Virus record (IMG/VR): IMGVR_UViG_3300034065_000151
Coordinates: 32,001-96,000 of that record
Source of the DNA: a virus
Lineage: Duplodnaviria > Caudoviricetes
Length of the DNA: 64,000 nucleotides
Reading direction: 5' to 3' (one strand)
Shown here piece after piece: positions 6,891 through 57,178 of this stretch (positions within the stretch are counted from its first letter, which is position 1; every line of letters begins with the position of its first letter). The position numbers were made by a program, and so were the translations under genes. The notes under the pieces are model-generated. The model ran no database searches. It was not told where the DNA came from and saw only the letters and a program-made list of their open reading frames with translations.

Positions 6891-8036
6891 TTATATGACA
6901 AATGGTAAGGCTTCACCTTCAAATTGATCCTTACCTTCTTCATCATCATTATGTGCATCAGCATCAGGTGCTACTGATTCATAAACTATTTTCCTAGCCT
7001 TCTCGTCATAAGATGATAACCGTGTTAATAATTTCATAATTAATGTCATAGCCATAACAGCATCATCAGTACAACCAGTTTTTGCTTTGTAAGTATTACC
7101 AACTGAGATAAAGTTCTGTAACTCAAATAATAATGTTTCTGATCTAATATGTAAACCATCCTTAGAACCTTTTTCTAAAAGATTCTTTAACTGCATACAA
7201 GTTAACATTTTAACTTTGTTTGTTGTATAAACACCAAGTCTATTATCCTTTTCACTATATAAATCAACACCATCTATATAGACACCACCATCGGGGGATT
7301 CATCATTTTGTATAAGAGCAACTAATGCTTCACCAACACCATTACGTTCAAAGGTCCAAAGAATTTCAGAACGACCACCCATTTTCCCAGGCTTCCTTAG
7401 GAATTTGAATAACCATTTTATCTTGGCATAAATTAATGGTACATTAACTTGATTCAATCGAAGTTCAATGACCTGTTCTAATGAAGGGAATTCTACCACC
7501 TGTATAACAGTGAAGTCATTACCTGTACCAGTAGCAGGATCAATACCAACCAAATAGGTTTTATCACGGCCACCAAAGTCTTCTTTCCAGAATTTGAATC
7601 CCATATCTTCACGGATTGGTTGTGCGGCTTTAAGATATGACAATTTTAATGAGTCAAGTAACATTGCCTCAGATGAAATAAATTGACAATTATGGGAAAT
7701 TACCCCAGTAGTCATATAAGCACTACCACCCTCTACATCTAATAAATCATATAAAAACTGAGGTTCTTTTAATATTTTAACTGATAATATAGGATCATCA
7801 CCACCATCTATAGTAGTAAGTGACATTCCTGGTTCAATATGCTCAGCATCACACCAACCACATTCTACTAAAAATTTATGATGTAACCCACAAATAATTT
7901 TATTTGAAGTAGATATAATTTCAACAACTTCTTCATGCCAAGTTTTAGACATTCCACTAAAAGATTTCATTCCAGTTGGAGTCTGAATCTTTAAACCTTT
8001 AGTATTCTTTATTATTGATTGAGCCAAATTTTGCAT
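6891..8036 (-). CDS. terL: Split-intein C-fragment (116 aa) fused to terminase large subunit nuclease half
   Basis: Intein blocks ICGLHHKF, LYDLLDV, GVISHN/C; then RNase H-like LVGIDPATGTGNDF, FERNGVG, TDDAVMA. Confidence 0.9.
   Translation of the reverse strand: MQNLAQSIIKNTKGLKIQTPTGMKSFSGMSKTWHEEVVEIISTSNKIICGLHHKFLVECGWCDAEHIEPGMSLTTIDGGDDPILSVKILKEPQFLYDLLDVEGGSAYMTTGVISHNCQFISSEAMLLDSLKLSYLKAAQPIREDMGFKFWKEDFGGRDKTYLVGIDPATGTGNDFTVIQVVEFPSLEQVIELRLNQVNVPLIYAKIKWLFKFLRKPGKMGGRSEILWTFERNGVGEALVALIQNDESPDGGVYIDGVDLYSEKDNRLGVYTTNKVKMLTCMQLKNLLEKGSKDGLHIRSETLLFELQNFISVGNTYKAKTGCTDDAVMAMTLIMKLLTRLSSYDEKARKIVYESVAPDADAHNDDEEGKDQFEGEALPFVI
7689..8036 (-). mobile_element. Intein C-fragment (IntC)
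   Basis: Ends His-Asn followed by Cys+1. Confidence 0.85.
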
Positions 8037-9034
8037 TCTTCTATTACCTTATTAGGATTTTTCTTATAATCAGATTCCCATACAACTTTAACTTGAAATC
8101 CAGCATCTTCTACTATTTTTTTCTTTAAAGCATCATGTTCCCATATTTTACAAGCCATTCTTTTTTTATTTCGACCAATTAAAAAATCAGCATTATATTT
8201 TTTGGGATTACCATGCCAATAATCACCATTAAATTCTATAATTTTCATATTATAATTAAAATCATATATTTTTCCATTTACTGATTTTTCTTTAGTCTTT
8301 GGTTTAAACATTGCTTGATTATTAATATCTAAGTAACTAAATAATATTGAAGCAATTTTAGAATATCCAGCAAATTTATGTTTATTAGCAGGACATTCCA
8401 TACCATATCTTTTAATATTAGTCTTTCTACGTTTTTCTATATTACCTTGCTTTTCTTCTTGAGATTTTAAATTCCAATTATCACTAATTTTCTTACCATG
8501 AATATTCAATTCTTCTTCAGATTTATTAGCCCAAGTTTCTTTTGTCTTGTCCCAATTAGCATAATCTTCTCTACCATACTTACCTAACATTGTCACTTTA
8601 CGCTTCTGAGCTGTTCTTTCATATCCAGTTAACCCATCTTTACCAATTTTATTATTAGCTTCATCACATCGTTTTATCATCTCTATTTTTATATCTGGAT
8701 TATCTTTTAATGTTTTAGCTCTCTTAATATTACCCTCTAACTTACATTCATCAGATTTATTTTTACCAGCTTAACTATAGGCCTTACTAGTACATTCTTT
8801 ACTACCACATACTTCATGAAATATCCAATTTATACCATCATTACTTTTTAATTTAGTAGTGTTATCACAATATATACATTTTGGTGCAATCTGTTCATAC
8901 TTAACCACATAATCATGTAATGTTAAATTTTGTTTAGCTAATGATAATGAAAACTTACCATTAGTTAAACAATACTCCTTATTATCAATTAATGAATTGA
9001 TGTATTTCGATTTCCCCCGATTCAAGATTGGCAT
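8012..9034 (-). pseudogene. Free-standing homing endonuclease (Zn-finger plus Vsr/DUF559-like PD-(D/E)xK), interrupted by in-frame TAA at 8771-8773
   Basis: ORFs 8771..9070 and 8012..8680 are one frame: KECTSKAYS*AGKNKSDECK...MIKRC; CIYC..CGSKEC; YDF...IIEFNGDYWHGNP...VVWESD. Confidence 0.75.
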
Positions 9035-9869
9035 AAAGTTCTCCCATTGTAATTTGTCCAATACATGCATTTATAGAAGTTGAAGCACTAAGGCATAAAA
9101 CTTCCTGGGCAAAACCAATTGGTCCTAATTCACCTTTCATATCACTAAGATACTTTTCACCACGACCTGGAACTAAGTGCCATGGGAAATATTTTGGTTT
9201 GAAGTTGTTACCACCTGAGTTTGCTTCTCTCCAAAGAGTTGCAAATAAATCAGTATCTCCATTTGGTGTGGATGTAATAATCATATCACCACCTGTTGAA
9301 AGGGTTGGTGCAATAGAACGCCACATTTCAGTTTGGATTTTTGGTGAGATGAAAGCTAATTCATCAAGGTATAGTTTTGAAATTGCATAACCACGACCTG
9401 TCTTTGAAGTGGTAGCTTGGGAGATAATACGGGAACCATTATCAAATTCAATTCTGTGTTTGTTATAATACTTACAACCAGCCTTAAGCCAGTTAGGAAG
9501 TTCTTCATAAGCAAAGCGAATACGGTCCAGAATTTCCTGGGCATGGGTATCATTTTTAGATGCGATAACAATAGTCTTATCTTCATGGAACATTGCGAAC
9601 CATAATAAGAACATGGAAATAGTTTGGGTTTTACCAGACTGACGGGAAATAAGACCAATCAAACGAGATTCAGTTAAACAAGCCTGAACTAATTCTTCCT
9701 GGAAAGGATATAGATCAAACAACATAGTACCCTTGGTAGCATGTTGAAGATAAACATAATTTTTAATGAAATAGACTGGATCAACTCTACAACGTTTTAA
9801 TTCTTCTATGAGTTCTGGTGTATATTCAGATTCCGAAAATGCCTTTTTAATAAGTTCATTTTTAGCCAT
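8985..9869 (-). CDS. terL: Terminase large subunit ATPase half ending in a 36-aa split-intein N-fragment
   Basis: DPVYFIKNY, LYPFQ, RQSGKT Walker A, LYLDE Walker B, ITSTPNG; ends QEVL/CLSASTSI...ITMGELY. Confidence 0.92.
   Translation of the reverse strand: MAKNELIKKAFSESEYTPELIEELKRCRVDPVYFIKNYVYLQHATKGTMLFDLYPFQEELVQACLTESRLIGLISRQSGKTQTISMFLLWFAMFHEDKTIVIASKNDTHAQEILDRIRFAYEELPNWLKAGCKYYNKHRIEFDNGSRIISQATTSKTGRGYAISKLYLDELAFISPKIQTEMWRSIAPTLSTGGDMIITSTPNGDTDLFATLWREANSGGNNFKPKYFPWHLVPGRGEKYLSDMKGELGPIGFAQEVLCLSASTSINACIGQITMGELYANLESGEIEIHQFIN
8988..9095 (-). mobile_element. Intein N-fragment (IntN)
   Basis: Block A CLSASTSI starts where terminase homology (FAQEVL) stops. Confidence 0.8.
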
Positions 9870-33936: not shown

Positions 33937-34161
33937 ATGATAAAACCATATATTAAAGCAGTTCATCATATGTTTATGCCCGGGGAAACTGTCACTGCGA
34001 CAATTAAAAAGTATAACTTATACCAGGTAACTAGAGAAGAAATGCCAGGTTTACTTGAGATGTTTAAGGAAGTTAATACAGCTGAAAATCCAAAACCGGG
34101 AATGAATGTTCTCATCCCCATTCTTGAACGTCTTCAACCAGAAGTATTTAAATCAGTTTAA
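33937..34161 (+). CDS. Hypothetical protein (LysM-like pattern)
   Basis: Strong AGGAGG RBS; H.F.PGETV..I.K.YN...PKPGMNVLIP. Confidence 0.6.
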   Translation: MIKPYIKAVHHMFMPGETVTATIKKYNLYQVTREEMPGLLEMFKEVNTAENPKPGMNVLIPILERLQPEVFKSV

Positions 34162-34428
34162 ATAGTCAGATAAGATATCAATCTTAACTTCTAATTCAAC
34201 CTTCTTGGCACGCATACTAGCAATGGCATTAGCTATTGCTTGTGGTGGGTGATGTGGGGAATATTGAGCATACTTTGATTCAATATGAGCTATTGCTGTT
34301 GAAACCAATTTATGTTCATCAACCAAAGTATTACGGTATTCATTTGAAAAAAAGTCCATGGATTTTCCTTTGGAAGGTTTAGGCTTCCGATTAAATTTTG
34401 ATATGATGGATAGGATATGTTTTTGCAT
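34153..34428 (-). CDS. Hypothetical protein
   Basis: ORF; true start may be MDFFS. Confidence 0.5.
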   Translation of the reverse strand: MQKHILSIISKFNRKPKPSKGKSMDFFSNEYRNTLVDEHKLVSTAIAHIESKYAQYSPHHPPQAIANAIASMRAKKVELEVKIDILSDYLN

Positions 34429-34485
34429 ATATTTATTTATGGATATCGAGAACTGAATATATCCATAAATAGATTAAATTAGCAA

Positions 34486-35691
34486 TTAAGAATGAAACAC
34501 TTTGATGATTGCATTTGAGATAGCTGTATGACTTGCATCATTATATTGTTGTAACAACTTCATGTTAATCTGGTGACGACCATGAACAGAATCTTCTAAA
34601 GCCATTTCCATTTTTTCAATGATATCTTCTGGGCTATTTGGATTAGCATGATATCTTTTTGATACCCAGAATATTTCTTCAGATACAACTACTGGAACAC
34701 CTTGAGCTACTGCATCAGCTGATACAATATTAAATGTTTCACTGTAGCTAACTTGTAGGTTAATATCCATAGTTGCTATTAATTCAACGAAGTCATCATG
34801 ATCTAACCATTGGTGTTCTACCAAAGTTGCGATCGGTGAACCTGCAAAAATATTACGAATGTTGTGAAGAATTGGATTACCACCACTTTCAAGACGACTT
34901 GTGTTGATATGGAAATACAAATGTTTTCTATGACCTTCAGCATAACGTAATGCAGCAAAGGCTTGTTGAAGTTGGTTTTTCAATGGGCGGATAGCACCAA
35001 AGCAACCAACATGAATACATGATGGATCAACTTCACGATCTTGCCAAGTTGATTCTACTTCTGTACTATAGTAGTTGGGGAAGTAAACAACCTTATCAGT
35101 TGGAATACCTGTTTGTGATACTAATGCTTTTAAGTCATTAACAGAAGTATGTGTATTAGAAGCAATAAAAACTTTTTCAAATTTTGTATATTTCGGCAAC
35201 CATCCAAGAGCTTGACCTTCTTGGGCTAAGAATGGAATGTTACTATGGTTACGGATAATCCATTTTACATGAGGATGTAGTTTAGTTAATACTTCAAATT
35301 TTTCAGGTACTACCCAGATTGCTTCGATAATAACAATATCAGGTTTGAATTTAAATACTTCTTTGTCGATACAGTTGTTATCAATAACTTGTACAATTTT
35401 TGATTCACATTCATGACCATTGAGACCAAGGTCATTAAGCATATCGCTGACCATTGTTGCAGAATTAAGTAAGCCGGAAGAAAGTCCTGAACCTGCTCCG
35501 CCTGAACTATAGGAGCAATATGGATTATCACGATGTTTTAATATAAACAGTATTTTTTTCATTGAAGTTATGTCTTGTGGTGTGGTTGGTTGGTGAAAAA
35601 GTTTCATAAGGGTATCCTTTAAGTGTTGACCATCGAAATAATGGAATAGGTTTTCAAATACATCCATTATTGTTTGTATAAATTTGTTCAT
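34486..35691 (-). CDS. Glycosyltransferase (GT-B, GT4-like)
   Basis: GCFGAIRPLKNQ, VSYSETFNIVSADAVAQGVPVVVS. Confidence 0.85.
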   Translation of the reverse strand: MNKFIQTIMDVFENLFHYFDGQHLKDTLMKLFHQPTTPQDITSMKKILFILKHRDNPYCSYSSGGAGSGLSSGLLNSATMVSDMLNDLGLNGHECESKIVQVIDNNCIDKEVFKFKPDIVIIEAIWVVPEKFEVLTKLHPHVKWIIRNHSNIPFLAQEGQALGWLPKYTKFEKVFIASNTHTSVNDLKALVSQTGIPTDKVVYFPNYYSTEVESTWQDREVDPSCIHVGCFGAIRPLKNQLQQAFAALRYAEGHRKHLYFHINTSRLESGGNPILHNIRNIFAGSPIATLVEHQWLDHDDFVELIATMDINLQVSYSETFNIVSADAVAQGVPVVVSEEIFWVSKRYHANPNSPEDIIEKMEMALEDSVHGRHQINMKLLQQYNDASHTAISNAIIKVFHS

Positions 35692-35729
35692 GTAAATCCC
35701 CGAAATTGAATTGCTAGAATTGATACATC

Positions 35730-35737
35730 TATTTATA
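35730..35737 (-). promoter_or_regulatory. Late promoter TATAAATA for the glycosyltransferase
   Basis: Exact motif after a terminator, about 40 nt upstream of the start. Confidence 0.65.
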
Positions 35738-35742
35738 CAAAT

Positions 35743-35774
35743 AAAAAAGCTTACTAAAAATAGTAAGCTTTTTT
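35743..35774 (-). terminator. Rho-independent terminator
   Basis: AAAAAAGCTTACTA-AAAA-TAGTAAGCTTTTTT. Confidence 0.75.
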
Positions 35775-35794
35775 GGGGGAAGATATTTGAAATA

Positions 35795-36244
35795 TTATTC
35801 TTTTACAAGTAGATGATCTGCATCACCAACACCTCGAAGGGTTTTCTTATTAAACTTTAATACTTTATTACCATCTTTGTGATCAGTGATATGAAGTTGT
35901 GTTGGTGTAACTCTGAGAACATTGAATTTACCATAACTACCAGTATCAGTTCCTTTAGTATGAGTGTGTAATTTAACAACATCACCATCATTATATGAGG
36001 CAGTCATTGAGGTTGCACTTTCTTTTATACCTGCTAATGCAGCATAATACTTTGCATACATAGCTAAATCATTTAAATTGTAATAATCAATATCATTATC
36101 ATTTAAATAAGAAATTACTTCTTGATGATCAATCTTAAAATTAAGGGATTTTAAAAAAGACGCTTTTTCTTCATTAGACAATAAAGAAAACATATTTACT
36201 AATTCTGATGATTTTGACTCATTAAGTAATTGTGAGACTTTCAT
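35795..36244 (-). CDS. Putative internal head protein
   Basis: MKVSQLLNE leader, internal IKES site; downstream of major capsid gene. Confidence 0.55.
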   Translation of the reverse strand: MKVSQLLNESKSSELVNMFSLLSNEEKASFLKSLNFKIDHQEVISYLNDNDIDYYNLNDLAMYAKYYAALAGIKESATSMTASYNDGDVVKLHTHTKGTDTGSYGKFNVLRVTPTQLHITDHKDGNKVLKFNKKTLRGVGDADHLLVKE

Positions 36245-36355
36245 TTTTTTCCTTTAGTTATTAGTTTATTATTAATAAACTTCATTTTATAAGCTGTATC
36301 ATATTCTGATTTTAATATGGCTTTTTCTGCTTCAGGCCATCCCTTTTTTAACTTT
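36241..36355 (-). pseudogene. 3' remnant of a helical-repeat family gene
   Basis: Start-less frame LKKGWPEAEKAILKSEYDTAYKMKF...* ending in ATGA overlap with the next gene. Confidence 0.5.
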
Positions 36356-36380
36356 AAGGAAACTTATAATTTTTAGGTAT

Positions 36381-36408
36381 TAAAAAGGACTCTTCGGAGT
36401 CCTTTTTA
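36381..36408 (-). terminator. Rho-independent terminator after major capsid gene
   Basis: TAAAAAGGACTC-TTCG-GAGTCCTTTTTA. Confidence 0.85.
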
Positions 36409-41510: not shown

Positions 41511-42125
41511 TTATTTCTTAGTAATTGATTCGATAAATTTACGAACTTCAGCGGCGAAATACTTCTGTGCTTTTGGATCATTCTGAACTGCTTCTGCTAA
41601 TGTCAAAATACGAGTATGTTCTTTTGCTTCACGAACTGCATCTGGATAGCAACCAGGACCTGAAGGTTGTGATACAATATCCAAAGCGATAAAACTAAAG
41701 TCTTCAACGATACCATCATTGTTAACATTACCAGTACCACGTGATGAAACACCAAGCTTCATACCACCTTCGATTAATTGCTGAACAATCAAACCAGATG
41801 GTGTATTGAAGATTTTACATTTACCAACAGCATTATTACCATCCATCCAAGCTTCAGTAATAATGTGAGAAACGTTCTTAAGATCAACTGATAAATTGTC
41901 TGGGTGATTCAACTCACCAGGACATGAAATACCTTCTTTAATCTGTTGATTGATATGAGCAACCGCATTAGCGATTTCTTTTAAAGGGTACTTACGTTTA
42001 TTCAGATTTTCTTGTTCTGCCGCCATCATGCGACCAGAAAGATATAGGTTCTTACCTGAATCATGTGACTCTACAAGTTGAGCTTGTGCAGGAGTATAAT
42101 GTTCAATAAGCAATTGTGATTTCAT
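41511..42125 (-). CDS. gp21: Prohead protease
   Basis: NLNKRKYP, GELNHP, VSH, TPSG, LGVSSRGTG, LDIVSQPS. Confidence 0.95.
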   Translation of the reverse strand: MKSQLLIEHYTPAQAQLVESHDSGKNLYLSGRMMAAEQENLNKRKYPLKEIANAVAHINQQIKEGISCPGELNHPDNLSVDLKNVSHIITEAWMDGNNAVGKCKIFNTPSGLIVQQLIEGGMKLGVSSRGTGNVNNDGIVEDFSFIALDIVSQPSGPGCYPDAVREAKEHTRILTLAEAVQNDPKAQKYFAAEVRKFIESITKK

Positions 42126-42270: not shown

Positions 42271-43908
42271 TTAGGCTTCTTCCGGAGCTGGTGTTGCTGG
42301 TGCTTTTTCTTCAGGTGAGGCCTCTTCTGGCTCTTCTTCTGCTCCAGCTGCTTCTGGTGGTTCTTCACCACCAGCAGGTCCTACTGTTTCCTTCTTGGTT
42401 TCCACATTTGGATCATAGAACTGACGGATTTCGTCAACTGATAAACCATCTTGGATACCACGTTCTTGTTTCAATAAGGCTTCATTCATCTGGATATCAT
42501 CTTTAGTCAAACCTAAATAACGTTCCATCATGAATCGTTTAGACAAATATGGTGTATCTTCGACAGCTTTAAATGATGCAATAAGTTCAGTATCCAATGC
42601 AGCCTGACGATACAAGGCAAAGTTCTGTGGTTCAGCAAGTGTAAGTTTGAATAGATCAGGATCAATATTGATACCTGTCACTTTAAGATATGCCTTGAAG
42701 TGCTCATCAAAGACTTCCTGGATACATGATTGCAATCTGATAACAAAGTTAGCAAAAATACGTTCTTCCATATATGCCACACCAGTCTTACCATCGTTAT
42801 ATGCAGAACCTGGATTAGTTGCATCCTGTCCTTTCATGTATGATGAAGGAACACGTAAAGCACGGAAAACTTTGTTAAGGAAATAATCTAATTCTGGGAT
42901 TTCCCAGGTAGTACCACCAGGTAAAGTTTCAACACGCGAACTTCTACCTGCTGCAGTTACTGGAAGGAATATATCTTCACCGATCGATTCAGCATTGTAT
43001 TGAGAATCTGTTTGGTTTTGATTAGCAGTGTTTGGCATACGCTTTTGACGCAAGTCGTTACGGATGGTTTCCAAATGCTGTTTAACACGATGTGGTGCCA
43101 TATTACCAACATCGATATAAAATACACGACGTTCTGGGGCACGAACAATACGATAGATAATCGCAGAGTCTTCCAACATGGTTAACTTTTGGTAATCTTT
43201 AAAAGCTGACTGTAATATGGAAAGACCAAATGGTGCAGTATCACTCATATCATCAGATAGAGTAAAGTGTAGCATCGCAATAGCTGGGGTAATTTCAACT
43301 GAATCAGAAGCTGATGCAGTTGCTGAACCTGGTTTCATTGCCTTAACAGAATCCATGAAACTTGATGGACGGATATGGTAAGCAACCTTTTCACCTTGGG
43401 CATTAATTTCAACACCAATTACTCGGGTTGGATCTACATATTCCCATTGTTCAGTATCAGAAGTCTTGCGAAAAAAGCAATCACCATACTTAACCATTTG
43501 ACGGGCAGTATTGTAAACACGTTTGTTAAGTTTGTGGAATCTTGACCAGTGGCGAAGTGCTGCTCTTAAGGTAGTAACAGTGGTATCAGGAATTTCTTGA
43601 TTTTCTTCGGTTTGATAATCAATGATAAATGGTAGGCTTGTACGTTTATCAGGATTTGAAATTTCTTCAGCAATAATATCAAGGGCACGTGAGATATCAC
43701 CAATGTCCATGGCATCATATTGTTTATAGCGTTGAAGACGGGCAGTAGCACCTTTTAATAGATTTGAAAACCAAGCAACAGTAGAGAATGATGAATACCC
43801 TGCTGAGTTGATATTCATACCATCATCCATGTTAATGGTAGGTTGTGAATACGCTGTCTTACGAGATGCTGGAGTTATAATTTTCCAGTAATTTTCCCAT
43901 TGAGCCAT
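42271..43908 (-). CDS. gp20: Portal protein
   Basis: LEDSAIIYRIVRAPERRVFYIDVGNM, EDIFLP, VETLPGG, ALRVPSS. Confidence 0.97.
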   Translation of the reverse strand: MAQWENYWKIITPASRKTAYSQPTINMDDGMNINSAGYSSFSTVAWFSNLLKGATARLQRYKQYDAMDIGDISRALDIIAEEISNPDKRTSLPFIIDYQTEENQEIPDTTVTTLRAALRHWSRFHKLNKRVYNTARQMVKYGDCFFRKTSDTEQWEYVDPTRVIGVEINAQGEKVAYHIRPSSFMDSVKAMKPGSATASASDSVEITPAIAMLHFTLSDDMSDTAPFGLSILQSAFKDYQKLTMLEDSAIIYRIVRAPERRVFYIDVGNMAPHRVKQHLETIRNDLRQKRMPNTANQNQTDSQYNAESIGEDIFLPVTAAGRSSRVETLPGGTTWEIPELDYFLNKVFRALRVPSSYMKGQDATNPGSAYNDGKTGVAYMEERIFANFVIRLQSCIQEVFDEHFKAYLKVTGINIDPDLFKLTLAEPQNFALYRQAALDTELIASFKAVEDTPYLSKRFMMERYLGLTKDDIQMNEALLKQERGIQDGLSVDEIRQFYDPNVETKKETVGPAGGEEPPEAAGAEEEPEEASPEEKAPATPAPEEA

Positions 43909-48858: not shown

Positions 48859-48888
48859 AAAAAAGGACCTTCAATAGGTCCTTTTTTT
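48859..48888. terminator. Bidirectional terminator
   Basis: AAAAAAGGACCT-TCAAT-AGGTCCTTTTTT between convergent genes. Confidence 0.8.
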
Positions 48889-50170: not shown

Positions 50171-50656
50171 TTAGTCGTTAGGTTGAAAGGCTGCTAAGTA
50201 GTCAGTTAATGTAATGACTAATTCATCATAAGAATGAACTACAGGAATATCATATCTATGACAGACAATATCCACATTACCTTTACAATAAAATCCATGA
50301 GGACAACATACAATGACATTATCCCAATCCCGATTTGCTGATAGTCCCAACTCCATAAGAGTTATAGGAGATTTGGTATTAGGATCAAAATAGAATACGG
50401 TTATTTGAGCAGATTCCAATCCATTTAATTCCCAAGTAACTTGTTCATTAAATTGTGGATTTTCAAATTCTTGTACCCATGAGGCATCCCAATCAGTACG
50501 TCTTGGATTCAAAAAGAGAACAGAAAAGTCTCTAAAATCATTTACAAGACGTTCTTGCCATGGTTCAGCTAGCCCCATCTCAATTGATCCTGTCAAAAAT
50601 ACTTTTGGCAAGTGGGGATATACATTGATATTGTTTGGGGCTTTGACTTCAATCAT
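50171..50656 (-). CDS. Nucleoside 2-deoxyribosyltransferase-like protein
   Basis: VFLTGSIEMG..WQ, NPRR..W, QVTWEL, TKSPITLMELGL, KGNVDIVC. Confidence 0.85.
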   Translation of the reverse strand: MIEVKAPNNINVYPHLPKVFLTGSIEMGLAEPWQERLVNDFRDFSVLFLNPRRTDWDASWVQEFENPQFNEQVTWELNGLESAQITVFYFDPNTKSPITLMELGLSANRDWDNVIVCCPHGFYCKGNVDIVCHRYDIPVVHSYDELVITLTDYLAAFQPND

Positions 50657-50919
50657 TATGCATGACCAAGAACAGCTTCAATACCATCACGCTTCATACG
50701 ACGGTATACAGCTTTAGGACATTTTGGATCAAGAGTGACCGAATTGTGAATTTCAATTTGTGGCTGCATTTCTTTATGACCTTTGGCAGTTTTACCTTCT
50801 TTCATAACAGTCACTTTATGCTGGACATAACCGTAACGGGTATAAGCACCTTCAAGCACACCAGTTTTAACTAATTGGCGAACGATAATACGTAATGCTT
50901 TGGCTTTCTTTTGATTCAT
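50656..50919 (-). CDS. Hypothetical basic protein
   Basis: MNQKKAKALR...; coupled ORF. Confidence 0.6.
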   Translation of the reverse strand: MNQKKAKALRIIVRQLVKTGVLEGAYTRYGYVQHKVTVMKEGKTAKGHKEMQPQIEIHNSVTLDPKCPKAVYRRMKRDGIEAVLGHA

Positions 50920-51092
50920 TTTATTTCCTTGGTTGAATTGAGAACTTCTACAAAATTGATTGCTGCTTGTTTTACATCTTCTTCATATGCTCGTTGGGAT
51001 TTTACTGCTGGAACCAAATCACTAACAATTTCCTGAATTTTTTCTTCAGGCAAATTACCAACATCCACATAAAAAATTCTTCGATTACTCAT
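50916..51092 (-). CDS. 58-aa protein carrying the portal clip motif (not in ORF track)
   Basis: MSNRRIFYVDVGNLPEEKIQEIVSDL...; AAGGA RBS; ATGA overlap with next gene. Confidence 0.75.
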   Translation of the reverse strand: MSNRRIFYVDVGNLPEEKIQEIVSDLVPAVKSQRAYEEDVKQAAINFVEVLNSTKEIK

Positions 51093-51101
51093 CTTATTTC
51101 C

Positions 51102-51398
51102 TTAATAATTTAAAATACTATTGGTATTAAAGTACATATTATACAACTCAACTAATACATCACCATGACAAGCATCAGGTTTACACCAACAGCCTAATGT
51201 TAAACCTTTTAATTCTGGTAGAGAATTAAATAATTCAGGAGTATCTAAAATATATTGTCTATACTTTTCGATAACTTCTTTACGAGTTCCATGAACTCCT
51301 ATTATAAATGGATTTCCCCATTTACTTGGTCTCGTAATTATAAAATCGTAGTTGTCCCTTTTGCAGTGGACAACATTAATCTTCTTGTTTTTCTTCAT
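51102..51398 (-). CDS. DUF4326-like protein
   Basis: VVHCK, RPSKWGNPF, LGCWCKP.ACHGDVL. Confidence 0.85.
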   Translation of the reverse strand: MKKNKKINVVHCKRDNYDFIITRPSKWGNPFIIGVHGTRKEVIEKYRQYILDTPELFNSLPELKGLTLGCWCKPDACHGDVLVELYNMYFNTNSILNY

Positions 51399-52020: not shown

Positions 52021-52055
52021 AATTATGTCCCAATAAATTAATATTTCGAACTTTA

Positions 52056-52066
52056 ATTATAACACA
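52056..52066 (-). promoter_or_regulatory. Extended -10 sigma70-like promoter
   Basis: TGTGTTATAAT in intergenic gap. Confidence 0.55.
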
Positions 52067-52072
52067 AAATTG

Positions 52073-53361: not shown

Positions 53362-53404
53362 ATTTTATAGGGAGTAGTTAAAAAGGAATTACCTTTTATT
53401 TATA

Positions 53405-53692: not shown

Positions 53693-53949
53693 GGGTTGGA
53701 TAAGGTATAGATACACAAGTTTCTGGCCTGTGTAAGTCGGGTTAAACATTCAAATAATATGCCAGGAGTAACTAAATTGCCACTAGTCATATGACAAAGC
53801 TGTAAAATAGATGATTCAATTTCATTAATTGTTTTCTGATCAGGAATCACCGCTTTAAAATGAGTCTCAATAAAATATATTGGATCATGTATTAAACTAG
53901 CTTGTTGAGATAGGGTTAACTTTGGTGGTGGTATATTATTGTATGTCAT
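53689..53949 (-). CDS. Small protein resembling the terminase N-terminus
   Basis: HDPIYFIETH vs TerL VDPVYFIKNY. Confidence 0.5.
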   Translation of the reverse strand: MTYNNIPPPKLTLSQQASLIHDPIYFIETHFKAVIPDQKTINEIESSILQLCHMTSGNLVTPGILFECLTRLTQARNLCIYTLSNP

Positions 53950-54347
53950 TCAGCATCATCTTCCGGGATAACATTAACACCAAGCAAATTGATATCAGTA
54001 ATTTCTTTTGTACCATTATCTCGCATGTGTACATTACCTGTAGAATAAGAGCGATAAGAAACTGGAACATGACCATTTATTAAGGTTTCTAATATATGTC
54101 CCTGATGTGTATCAGCAACTTTAATTGTACCAATCATGTTACCTCCTTCTAGTTTCAAATCAGAAACAGTAAAGGCTACATCTTTTTGATCTATAGTACA
54201 ACCAATTGAACAACCAATAATTCCAGGCAATGGCTGGTTCTTAGCCTTCCATTCATCAATCGCTTTTTGTAAAGCTTCTGATGAGTAACAATTGCCATTC
54301 CGTGTTGGTACATCAGCTTTTAATATATCAACCTTAAATTCTTCCAT
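53946..54347 (-). CDS. Degenerate (likely inactive) prohead protease paralog
   Basis: Colinear with 41511..42125 over its whole length; His and Asp catalytic positions substituted. Confidence 0.75.
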   Translation of the reverse strand: MEEFKVDILKADVPTRNGNCYSSEALQKAIDEWKAKNQPLPGIIGCSIGCTIDQKDVAFTVSDLKLEGGNMIGTIKVADTHQGHILETLINGHVPVSYRSYSTGNVHMRDNGTKEITDINLLGVNVIPEDDAE

Positions 54348-54348
54348 C

Positions 54349-56319
54349 TCAGTCTCCTAAAATTCGGGAAAAGCCCGATTCCTTTCTAACTACGACCGTT
54401 TTATCAAATCGGCCGACAGCCTCAGGACGATGTGAAATAATCCACATACTCAAATTATCTTCCCGAGTCTTACCCTTCAACAACTTAAATATGTTATTAA
54501 CACCTAATGAATCCAAACCACCATCAATCTCATCAACAAACAAACAGTTCACATGAGAATGTAAATGATGCAATACATCCCTAAATGATAATGACAATGA
54601 AAGATTAACACGTTTCTTTTCACCACTGGAAAGGTTACCGAAATCCAATTCACGACCATACTGTACCACAGTACAGCTCATATCATCATCAAACTTAATA
54701 ACATGAGGTAAACCCAATTCTCTGGTGTAATAAAATAAACGCTTATTCAAGAATGGAATTGTACGGCTAATAATTGTACGACGGATAAATGAATTCTTAT
54801 CAGTTAACAGTTTCAATAGGAATTGCTGATGTTCTATCAGTTTCTTCAATCTATCAAGTTCTGTATAATCAACTATATTTATAGGACTTTTCAACAGTTC
54901 TTCATGGGCTTCAATATGAGGATTAACAAGAACTGGTTGGTTTTTAAGCTGTTCAAGCACCTCAATATATGGATTAACTGGAATAGGCTGATTTTTAAGT
55001 TGTTCAAATACCTCAGTATATGGATTACTTGAATCCTTTAACTCTTTTATTTTGTTTTCAGCAATAACAGCATTAGATTCAGCTTTAAGAACTTCTTCAA
55101 GACTGCCAAATTTCATTACTTCTAATGCTGATTTCTTATCATTCAATAATGTTGCTAGTTCTGCATTTCTAATATTAATTTCATGAATCCATGTATTAAC
55201 ACTTGTTTCTTTATCATGAATAGATTCTTTTAATCCACTTATTTTCTTAGCAGCACCTTCAAATTTCTGTAAACAGTATGGACACTTTTCATCTACTAAA
55301 TGCGATAATTCTTTAGTCAGTTTTTTAATATCTGTTTCTAAAATCAAATTATCTTTTTTTAATCCATTAATCTCATTAGTGAGTCTGGTTTCTTCTGTTT
55401 TAATTCCATTAACTAATACATGAAGTTCCTTTTCTACTTCACTATCAAATGTGGAAATTAAATCATAATCTTTTTGCAATTTAACAAGTTGGGATTGTTT
55501 TTCAGTATCCCATTTGGTGATACGATCTTCTGCTTCCTTAAGCTGTTTAACCGTTTGTTTTTCTGTATCAGTATCCCATTTTTCAATACGATCTTTTGCT
55601 TCTTGAAGCTGATTAGCATATTGATTTACTGTATCATTATCCCATTTAGTAACACGCTCCTCGGCATTTTTAACTTGCTTCTGGAATAAAGCTGATTGAG
55701 ATTCCTGCTCTTTGATAACAGCTTCTTGAATAGCCGCATTACTTTCAGTTGCTTTGATAATAGCTTTCAACTTGATTGCCTTCTCAGACAACAAAGTGAT
55801 ATTAAACAATTCTTCAATCTGTGCACGTTGTTGAGCAACTGGCATCAACAAGAATGGGGTTGAGTCACCGGAGAATACAATGATCTTAGTAAACAGTTCA
55901 TAACTGATACCAATAACTTCAAGGATTAACTTATTGGTTTCTGCAGCACTTGCACAAGTAATATCTTCACCATTCTTAGTGAATGTGATTTCAGTTGATT
56001 CACCACGACTGCGATATATCTCATATGTGTCAATACCCTTATCAAAGAATAAGCGTACTTCCAACATGGTTTTCTTCAGATTATTGGTTGCATTAATCAA
56101 TCGCTGAAGCGATATCTGGCTTAATGGTTTATCATAAACCGCATAGACCAATGTATTAAGAATGGTGGTTTTACCGGAACCATTAGCACCATCATTATCA
56201 AGATTCTCGCCTTGAAGATGGGTAGTACCAGGATCACTTAAATCGATGACTGTGGTTTGATTACCAAAGGATAATACATTGCGGATATGTAGTTCTTTAA
56301 AACGAATTGGAATACTCAT
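54349..56319 (-). CDS. gp46: Recombination ATPase gp46 (Rad50/SbcC-like)
   Basis: NVLSFGN, GANGSGKT, CPYC hook, LSSGEKKR, FVDEIDGGLD, IISH. Confidence 0.95.
   Translation of the reverse strand: MSIPIRFKELHIRNVLSFGNQTTVIDLSDPGTTHLQGENLDNDGANGSGKTTILNTLVYAVYDKPLSQISLQRLINATNNLKKTMLEVRLFFDKGIDTYEIYRSRGESTEITFTKNGEDITCASAAETNKLILEVIGISYELFTKIIVFSGDSTPFLLMPVAQQRAQIEELFNITLLSEKAIKLKAIIKATESNAAIQEAVIKEQESQSALFQKQVKNAEERVTKWDNDTVNQYANQLQEAKDRIEKWDTDTEKQTVKQLKEAEDRITKWDTEKQSQLVKLQKDYDLISTFDSEVEKELHVLVNGIKTEETRLTNEINGLKKDNLILETDIKKLTKELSHLVDEKCPYCLQKFEGAAKKISGLKESIHDKETSVNTWIHEINIRNAELATLLNDKKSALEVMKFGSLEEVLKAESNAVIAENKIKELKDSSNPYTEVFEQLKNQPIPVNPYIEVLEQLKNQPVLVNPHIEAHEELLKSPINIVDYTELDRLKKLIEHQQFLLKLLTDKNSFIRRTIISRTIPFLNKRLFYYTRELGLPHVIKFDDDMSCTVVQYGRELDFGNLSSGEKKRVNLSLSLSFRDVLHHLHSHVNCLFVDEIDGGLDSLGVNNIFKLLKGKTREDNLSMWIISHRPEAVGRFDKTVVVRKESGFSRILGD
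54895..55027 (-). repeat. About 3x 51-bp tandem repeat in gp46 coiled coil
   Basis: NPY.EV.EQLKNQP..V units; GGATTA at 54920, 54971, 55022. Confidence 0.8.
55500..55680 (-). repeat. About 3x 66-bp tandem repeat in gp46 coiled coil
   Basis: QL.EA.DRI.KWD.DT units; TCCCATTT at 55508, 55574, 55640. Confidence 0.8.
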
Positions 56320-56810
56320 AGGAAATAGATTAACTTTGCATTAGTACGGCTGAAATTTATACAGGGAATGAGTGTTTCACGCATCTCATCAAAGGCTTGT
56401 GGACTGAATTGTTTTGAAATAATAAGGTGGTCAACTGTTTTACCACGACCACCATGGGGACGGCTTATTAGAAAAATACGATTACCATTTTCAAATTCAA
56501 TTACATCCTTAGTAAATCTTTTAATTGGGATTCGATATAATTCGGGAATGCTATAAAAAATATCCCTTAACTGATATAAGATATAATCTTTTAAATTGGC
56601 ATTAGAAGAAGGAGTGGCAATGATAACATTTTTATTACTTTGATATAAACAAACCCATAAAGTAAACAACAAAACATCATCAACATCAGCACCATCTATC
56701 AGCTTATCTTCAAAGGTATTACTAAGATCCCTTCCACCATACATAGTTGAAAAGACTTCAAACTTTGTATGACTTTGTAGTTCAATAATTTGTTGTAAAG
56801 TATAGGTCAT
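56316..56810 (-). CDS. Degenerate terminase ATPase-domain paralog 1
   Basis: LLFTLWVCLYQSNKNVIIAT...IEFENGNRI...GGRGKTVDHLII aligns to TerL; no Walker A, no Walker B DE. Confidence 0.75.
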   Translation of the reverse strand: MTYTLQQIIELQSHTKFEVFSTMYGGRDLSNTFEDKLIDGADVDDVLLFTLWVCLYQSNKNVIIATPSSNANLKDYILYQLRDIFYSIPELYRIPIKRFTKDVIEFENGNRIFLISRPHGGRGKTVDHLIISKQFSPQAFDEMRETLIPCINFSRTNAKLIYFL

Positions 56811-57178
56811 GTGAAATATATTGCCCTTCCATTTTTTGGATCCATTGTTAACAAAAGCAATGCCAACTGATTCTTGTATCGTTCTAACTCATCAATAATA
56901 CCCATTGAACAAGCAATCACATTATGCTTTACATTAGCAAATGAATGCATGGTATTGATACCAACAAAACTGAAATTGCATTTGTTGTATAACTCGATAT
57001 TAGCAATTGGATGTGGGTTGTATTGAAAGGGAATACTATTCATGGTTGTTAAGATACCAGATAGTTCAACCGCTTTATCATAAGCAACTATACCCTCTTT
57101 ATAGATGACAAGATACTTTTCATCTGGACTGTTTTGACCAATCCGAATCATTTTATCAAAGAGATAGATTTCTTTCAT
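56807..57178 (-). CDS. Degenerate terminase ATPase-domain paralog 2
   Basis: PDEKYLVI..AVEL..NIELYNKCNFSFV..GIIDEL parallels EDKTIVI..AQEI..RIEFDNGSRII..LYLDEL. Confidence 0.5.
   Translation of the reverse strand: MKEIYLFDKMIRIGQNSPDEKYLVIYKEGIVAYDKAVELSGILTTMNSIPFQYNPHPIANIELYNKCNFSFVGINTMHSFANVKHNVIACSMGIIDELERYKNQLALLLLTMDPKNGRAIYFT

Follow-up and report, generated by a model that had tools for sequence, protein, structure and literature searches.

Positions 50916-51092 (minus strand) of the phage genome fragment analysed here hold an ATG-initiated gene of 58 codons. Judged from its sequence, its product is a homolog of one small part of the T4-type portal protein: the outer β-strand, the exposed tip and helix α6 of the clip, the surface on which terminase docks. 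This clip-like N-terminal half is followed by a unique C-terminal helix. What is new in the mini-gene is the combination of a clip of foreign type with a hypervariable patch lying exactly at the terminase-contact element. Full-text literature searches returned no description of natural free-standing portal-clip genes. Our preferred, still tentative reading is that the mini-protein acts as a soluble competitive mimic of the clip, occupying the clip-binding site of a terminase.

The window, meaning the whole 64,000-nt stretch that was analysed, is part of a 140,766-bp IMG/VR record with an estimated completeness of ~40%. The source phage is a jumbo myovirus distantly related to T4. Its resident portal protein (545 aa; 42271-43908, minus strand) matched the Pfam profile Portal_T4 with 280 bits over profile positions 3-433 and was closest to that of Ralstonia phage RsoM2USA (47.7%), followed by XacN1, PA5oct and similar phages. 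A sister phage was recovered from ENA metagenomes. The portals of the two phages are 98% identical overall, and the strand-tip-helix segment of the clip (portal residues 259-294; 43027-43134, minus strand) is the same in both. The sister phage carries, in the same synteny, an ortholog of the mini-gene (P0003, 58 aa, 78% identity). The two versions are referred to below as allele 1 (the mini-protein of the window) and allele 2 (P0003).

Similarity of the mini-protein to portal proteins was found at several levels. The Pfam profile PF07230 (Portal_T4) matched it with 26.1 bits (E = 4.5e-6), above the curated gathering cut-off of 22.9 bits, with residues 3-38 placed on profile positions 205-240. 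Allele 2 scored 22.7 bits, slightly below this cut-off, and was aligned over residues 3-38 again despite 13 differences. The PHROG portal family phrog_213 was matched with an E-value of 2e-7. In BLASTP against the resident portal (E = 7e-6), RRIFYVDVGNLP of the mini-protein was aligned with RRVFYIDVGNMA, and a phmmer search of the 841 ORFs of the 140-kb record gave the resident portal as the sole significant match. Portal genes in 2169 phage records were matched by tblastn, and the exact 12-mer RRIFYVDVGNLP was found in most of the 80 IMG/VR T4-like portals that were fetched. A chance likeness is ruled out by the Pfam, PHROG and BLASTP results together with the portal being the only intragenomic match. 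An earlier note, made from the sequence without database searches, had proposed that the motif matches both the resident portal and the T4-family gp20 signature, and these searches confirm it.

The homologous segment could be placed precisely on the T4 portal structure. In a PDB sequence search, residues 3-38 (50979-51086, minus strand) aligned without gaps to T4 gp20 residues 281-316 (3JA7, 6UZC), inside the clip domain defined as residues 279-358 (PMC4493910). The assignment of the motif to the terminase-docking surface, also made in the earlier note, thus holds. The parts represented are the outer strand RRIFYVDV, the tip GNLP and helix α6. In T4, four tip residues of gp20 (N291, M292, R295 and K296) project outward from the capsid to touch gp17, and packaging is lost when they are mutated (PMC4493910). 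A synthetic 24-residue peptide, gp20 288-311, is reported in work cited there to bind gp17 and to inhibit packaging; in our alignment it corresponds to mini-protein residues 10-33. At the four gp17-contact positions, the residues are N, L, E and K in allele 1 and D, I, D and K in allele 2. K296 is kept in both alleles and N291 in one, M292 is conservatively replaced by L or I, and R295 has an acidic counterpart in both, E17 in allele 1 and D17 in allele 2, which reverses the charge.

Compared with the gp20 clip, the mini-protein shares the strand, the tip of the form GN[ML]P and α6, and its RRIFYVDVGNLP segment is identical in many T4-like portals. In contrast, its helix has diverged and is followed by a 26-residue helix of its own. 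The full portal architecture is absent: only 36 of the 433 profile positions are covered, and the wing, stem, crown, tunnel loop and clip hairpin are missing. By sequence, the product is a homolog of a portal fragment and cannot be a portal. An AlphaFold2 model, weak and built from two sequences only (pLDDT 69), placed the beginning of a helix at residue 16, where α6 begins, and predicted the N-terminal strand to be unstructured alone. As weak evidence, an unstructured strand may be expected if the strand needs a pairing partner.

The sequence context points to a functional gene. A Shine-Dalgarno-like AAGGA (51099-51103, minus strand) is positioned 6 nt 5' of the ATG, overlapping the TAA that ends an upstream DUF4326 gene. 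The stop codon of the mini-gene and the ATG of the next, 87-aa ORF share an ATGA overlap, and by sequence reading this downstream gene is preceded by AAGGAAATAA-N-ATG, as is the mini-gene. Both the ribosome-binding site and the ATGA overlap had been described in the earlier note and are present as stated. Its term "unannotated" applies to the ORF track, in which the gene fell below the cut-off, but not to public data: six ENA and two Logan assemblies already have it as a predicted gene. The minus-strand gene string that holds the mini-gene is tightly packed and runs from Mre11/Rad50-like genes to a 12-bp hairpin with T runs on both sides (48859-48887), found in a terminator scan between convergent genes; this hairpin is the likely end of the string. 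Because of the Shine-Dalgarno site, the ATGA coupling, the tight packing, the eight assemblies, the syntenic ortholog and conservative replacements that occur in the annotated frame only (see below), we take the mini-gene to be a true accessory gene carried by an uncultured jumbo phage related to T4. Its translation in vivo is inferred from these features.

The mini-gene and the upstream DUF4326 gene share a reading frame, with the TAA and three codons between them (51093-51104, minus strand), and the Portal_T4 alignment extends weakly over the stop of the DUF4326 gene. The shared frame is probably due to chance, for which the expectation is one in three.

The nearest T4-type late-promoter-like TATAAATA upstream of the mini-gene on its strand is located 2.3 kb away at 53397-53404 (minus strand), 36 nt upstream of a PDDEXK gene, where it may serve as a promoter; it is kept in the sister phage. 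Of the ten TATAAATA sites in the window, nine (1233, 23371, 24520, 35730, 39086, 43940, 44593, 47723 and 53397) precede a gene start on the correct strand by 28-68 nt, the portal gene included, while the overall number of such sites in the window is no higher than expected by chance. The phage appears to use T4-type late promoters. A TGnTATAAT-like element is also present in the gap at 52021-52072.

Comparison of the two alleles revealed a strongly localized variability. All 13 replacements fall within codons 9-32 (50997-51068, minus strand), the equivalent of gp20 288-311 shifted by one residue; 13 of the 24 residues of this patch differ between sister phages whose portal clips are identical. 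Within an ungapped block of 301 nt (50900-51200), 20 of the 24 nucleotide differences are in the 72-nt patch (binomial P = 1.4e-9, with the block chosen post hoc). Outside the patch the block is ~99% identical between the sister phages, and the genes around the block are only 79-85% identical in DNA, with dS of 0.4-0.8. The patch is an island of divergence inside a recently shared segment.

Within the patch dN was 0.38 and dS 0.24; codons 1-8 and 33-58 contain no replacements and one synonymous change. The resulting dN/dS of ~1.6 was not significantly greater than 1 and comes from two alleles only, and diversifying selection, recombination over a short patch or a loosening of constraint could each account for the pattern. 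The replacements themselves were conservative (I/V, E/D, L/I, S/T), with a mean BLOSUM score of +0.77 versus -0.66 ± 0.49 in simulations (P ~ 0.002), and the BLOSUM sum was positive in the annotated frame alone. The 20 substitutions introduced no stop codon in this frame, and each of the other five frames contains 1-6 stops. These results support the view that the frame is translated and that its helix is under constraint. The variable positions showed no significant agreement with the variable positions of portals (Mann-Whitney P = 0.36). Hypermutation by a diversity-generating retroelement is unlikely, since neither an RVT_1 match nor another DNA copy of the patch was found in the 140-kb record (~40% complete). 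The predicted C-terminal helix (codons 33-58; 50919-50996, minus strand) is identical in both alleles and has no relative that we could find. None of the other ORFs among the 841 of the record shares this half, and a shared C-terminal address tag was rejected accordingly.

The clip-like part of the mini-protein resembles the portals of other phages more than that of its own. Against a canonical T4-like set (KVP40, AS-zj, cyanophage-type IMG/VR portals and RSP15), both alleles had 12-18 of 36 residues identical and BLOSUM scores of 56-95. Against the resident portal and its clade (RsoM2USA, XacN1, PA5oct, RAS14 and Xoo-sp13), the corresponding values were 7-13 of 36 and 38-65. The mini-protein itself has 14-18 of 36 residues in common with canonical T4-like clips and 9 of 36 with the resident clip. 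In the helix part, BLOSUM scores with canonical clips were 21-34, whereas the resident clip scored 3. In DNA, the mini-gene matches the resident portal gene over 24 nt only, and blastn likeness to portal genes in general is confined to a 45-nt motif at 80-84%. A recent duplication of the resident portal was rejected on the unrelated helix part and the 24-nt match, and a recent transfer from a T4-like portal gene found no support in the blastn result. With likeness limited to the 45-nt motif and a helix unlike the resident one, the origin is therefore old or foreign and not a recent duplication. A separate or older origin had been suggested from the tip residues in the earlier note; the present scores make a stronger case for it than was claimed.

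The distribution of the gene is very narrow. An exhaustive phmmer search of 1.84 billion protein representatives, in which further alleles were sought, yielded only the mini-protein and P0003, with no significant stand-alone homolog beyond the latter. A word-indexed search likewise found only these two, and the ESM Atlas yielded no additional family member. When IMG/VR and JGI metagenomes were scanned with degenerate DNA patterns of the conserved C-terminal half, no match was obtained, and the IMG/VR loci with the motif were full-length portals in 80 of 80 cases. A PF07230 scan detected the portal and the mini-gene in the phage's own record; in each of five cultured jumbo relatives, and likewise in four large T4-like IMG/VR contigs, the portal was its sole match. 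The search for stand-alone homologs called for in the earlier note thus produced one syntenic ortholog and, in the databases and relatives covered, nothing more. On these data the mini-gene is confined to one phage lineage, as judged from sequence. Its absence from the five cultured relatives means that it is not a general packaging component.

Several more distant candidates were considered. Both alleles matched the clip-like segment of two small PHROG families without assigned function, phrog_12349 (97 positions) and phrog_23805 (72 positions), with E-values of 1.2e-4 and 0.008. The mini-protein scored higher against phrog_12349 (23-25 bits) than full portals did (13-21 bits). The likeness to these families covers ~33 positions only, and a match over most of phrog_12349 was not reached (profile positions 57-89 only, 23 bits). 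An 80-aa hypothetical ORF of the nearest cultured relative, RsoM2USA_233 (L121:1495-1782, minus strand), contains a looser clip-like RRMFLIDVRNVP...L motif and gave a pairwise BLASTP E-value of 1e-5 with the mini-protein. Unlike the mini-gene, it occupies another locus, downstream of a UvsW-like helicase gene, and its motif is C-terminal, lacks the conserved Y and G and has no Portal_T4 match. Homology between the two is uncertain. A 2332-aa match (P0004) was dismissed as a repeat artefact, and no ribbon-helix-helix (RHH) or other small-fold family was matched among Pfam or PDB sequences even at E = 10.

The gene string also encodes small paralogs of two other head proteins. A 133-aa mini-paralog of the prohead protease (53946-54347, minus strand) matched the resident protease (41511-42125) by BLASTP with an E-value of 2e-9, with 25% identity to residues 69-153, and was further identified by phrog_207 (E = 5e-11) and by within-genome phmmer (4.7e-8). 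A 164-aa mini-paralog of the TerL ATPase domain (56316-56810, minus strand) lies between the Mre11-like and Rad50-like genes. It matched the N-terminal piece of the resident TerL (8985-9869) with an E-value of 1e-11 and 27% identity to residues 84-191, with additional matches to phrog_5989 (E = 6.5e-8) and in phmmer (5.9e-10); it is of the phage's own TerL type, both belonging to phrog_5989. The adjacent 123-aa ORF (56807-57178) gave no BLAST match to TerL, and an 86-aa ORF was rejected as a TerL paralog, having only a 9-residue match with TerL.

The resident large terminase is itself split (6891-9869, minus strand) into an N-terminal ATPase piece (8985-9869) and a C-terminal nuclease piece (6891-8036). 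The nuclease piece carries a weak intein-splicing signal, and a 222-aa ORF between the two pieces (8012-8680) has weak DUF7487 and restriction-endonuclease-like matches.

The 87-aa protein that is translationally coupled to the mini-gene through the ATGA overlap (50656-50919, minus strand) is basic. Its ends are conserved between the two orthologs and its centre (residues 37-59) is hypervariable, a patchiness like that of the mini-gene. Searches of Pfam, PHROG and the phage's own record assigned it to no family and found no intragenomic paralog.

In the reading that we tentatively prefer, the mini-gene product would be a free-standing outer β-strand, exposed tip and helix α6 fused to a 26-residue helix of its own. 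As a small soluble protein that displays the docking tip, it would fill the clip-binding site of a terminase, and docking of the occupied terminase on the portal would be disturbed or timed. The partner is more likely to be the terminase of co-infecting T4-like phages, whose packaging would be disturbed, than the phage's own TerL. We look for the partner outside the phage's own machinery because the clip copy is of the canonical T4-like kind and its patch varies while the phages' own clips are identical, and we rank a terminase first because the homologous gp20 peptide has a direct biochemical precedent. A host portal sensor is ranked second as the partner, with a role in the phage's own assembly, co-option for an unrelated task and a non-gene considered less likely. 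The coincidence of the variable patch with the equivalent of the gp17-binding peptide and the presence of TerL and prohead protease mini-paralogs in the same gene string favor the mimic; the loss of conservation at two of the four gp17-contact positions counts against it. A broader scenario, which we consider doubtful, is that jumbo phages make natural peptides that copy the packaging interface of other phages and act as dominant negatives. The mini-protein would then display a canonical T4-type portal tip with a rapidly diversifying interface, jamming the terminase of co-infecting T4-like competitors while the phage's own diverged portal-terminase pair is immune. Together with a dead mini-TerL and the mini-protease, such peptides would form a kit for inter-phage warfare directed at head assembly. 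A mini-TerL of the phage's own type does not fit a kit aimed purely at competitors.

Other readings of the same data must be weighed. The clip element might instead be a decoy that fills the portal-binding pocket of a host sensor (Avs4- or Avs11-type STAND NTPases or similar) without triggering it. Avs4 responds to the monomeric form of the portal, whose clip strand would lack its pairing partner (10.1101/2025.11.14.688446), and core virion proteins are sensed by many Avs families (10.64898/2026.01.04.697583). A hypervariable interface beside invariant structural genes would also suit an arms race with the host, and mini-paralogs of TerL, another Avs trigger, are encoded nearby. A precedent for such substitution is DSAD1, a small phage protein that occupies the tail-tube-binding pocket of DSR2 and traps it through mimicry of the tail tube protein (PMC10973363); unlike DSAD1, the mini-protein is a sequence homolog of a virion-protein fragment, and of a foreign-type portal rather than that of its own phage. 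However, a decoy should look like the protein it hides, and the mini-protein is a poor candidate for a decoy of the phage's own portal, being unlike the phage's own clip (9 of 36 matches, helix BLOSUM 3). Avs sensors are moreover described as enveloping whole folds via large interfaces (10.64898/2026.01.04.697583), and a 36-residue element may not bind. We regard this explanation as unlikely. A factor acting on the phage's own head, either binding its own TerL to delay docking or pairing its RRIFY strand with the clip strands of its own portal monomers to control ring assembly, appears more improbable still. The strand and G-N-[LM] tip shared with the resident portal, the conserved late-promoter-like TATAAATA upstream on the same strand and the strictly conserved C-terminal half are compatible with such a role, but the helix part is unlike the resident clip (BLOSUM 3), 13 of the 24 patch residues differ between two phages that have the same resident clip, and five cultured relatives with the same portal type do without the gene, which places it outside the conserved assembly pathway.

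The likeness to the clip might also be purely historical. An old fragment of a portal gene may have been co-opted for an unrelated job, for instance as a small β-α-α nucleic-acid-binding or adaptor protein working with the 87-aa protein, an account that we find possible, if rather unlikely. Only 36 residues are clip-like and the remaining 26 C-terminal residues are unique, the DNA likeness confined to 45 nt indicates an old origin, key contact positions are altered, and the gene is coupled to a basic partner with a hypervariable centre of its own. Against co-option, the Portal_T4 match is kept over identical residues in both alleles despite the 13 replacements, the searches at E = 10 provided no RHH or other family to which the product could belong, and the variable patch falls on the known terminase-binding peptide. 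That the frame is a chance ORF or a decaying pseudogene remnant is highly improbable. It is very short, only two alleles are known, and conservation is largely uninformative given flanks ~99% identical in DNA; yet a Shine-Dalgarno site and start-stop coupling are found on both sides in a tightly packed string, the 20 substitutions left the frame without a stop, and conservative replacement was significant in the mini-gene frame only.

Should the mini-protein prove to bind a terminase or a portal sensor, nature would have its own version of the synthetic gp20 packaging-blocking peptide. Both are free clip elements outside the dodecamer and cover the same region in which the alleles differ; gp20 288-311 is a laboratory reagent, whereas the mini-protein is encoded by a natural gene and has an N-terminal strand and a C-terminal helix in addition. 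Such binding would also make the mini-gene a first worked example of a phage gene copying only the docking tip of the portal, and would provide a testable route to how giant phages compete with other phages or blind portal-sensing immunity. An inhibitor scaffold for the portal-terminase interface that is both compact and evolvable would be a further gain, and the localized hypervariability pinpoints the residues worth swapping.

A further difference between the sister phages was noted downstream of the gene for the major capsid protein, where the sister phage (L114) has genes of 639, 175, 180 and 155 aa. The corresponding part of the window (34000-36400) contains a 149-aa ORF and a glycosyltransferase-like 401-aa ORF instead. 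As far as the gene order indicates, this is a local swap of gene content between head modules that are otherwise collinear.
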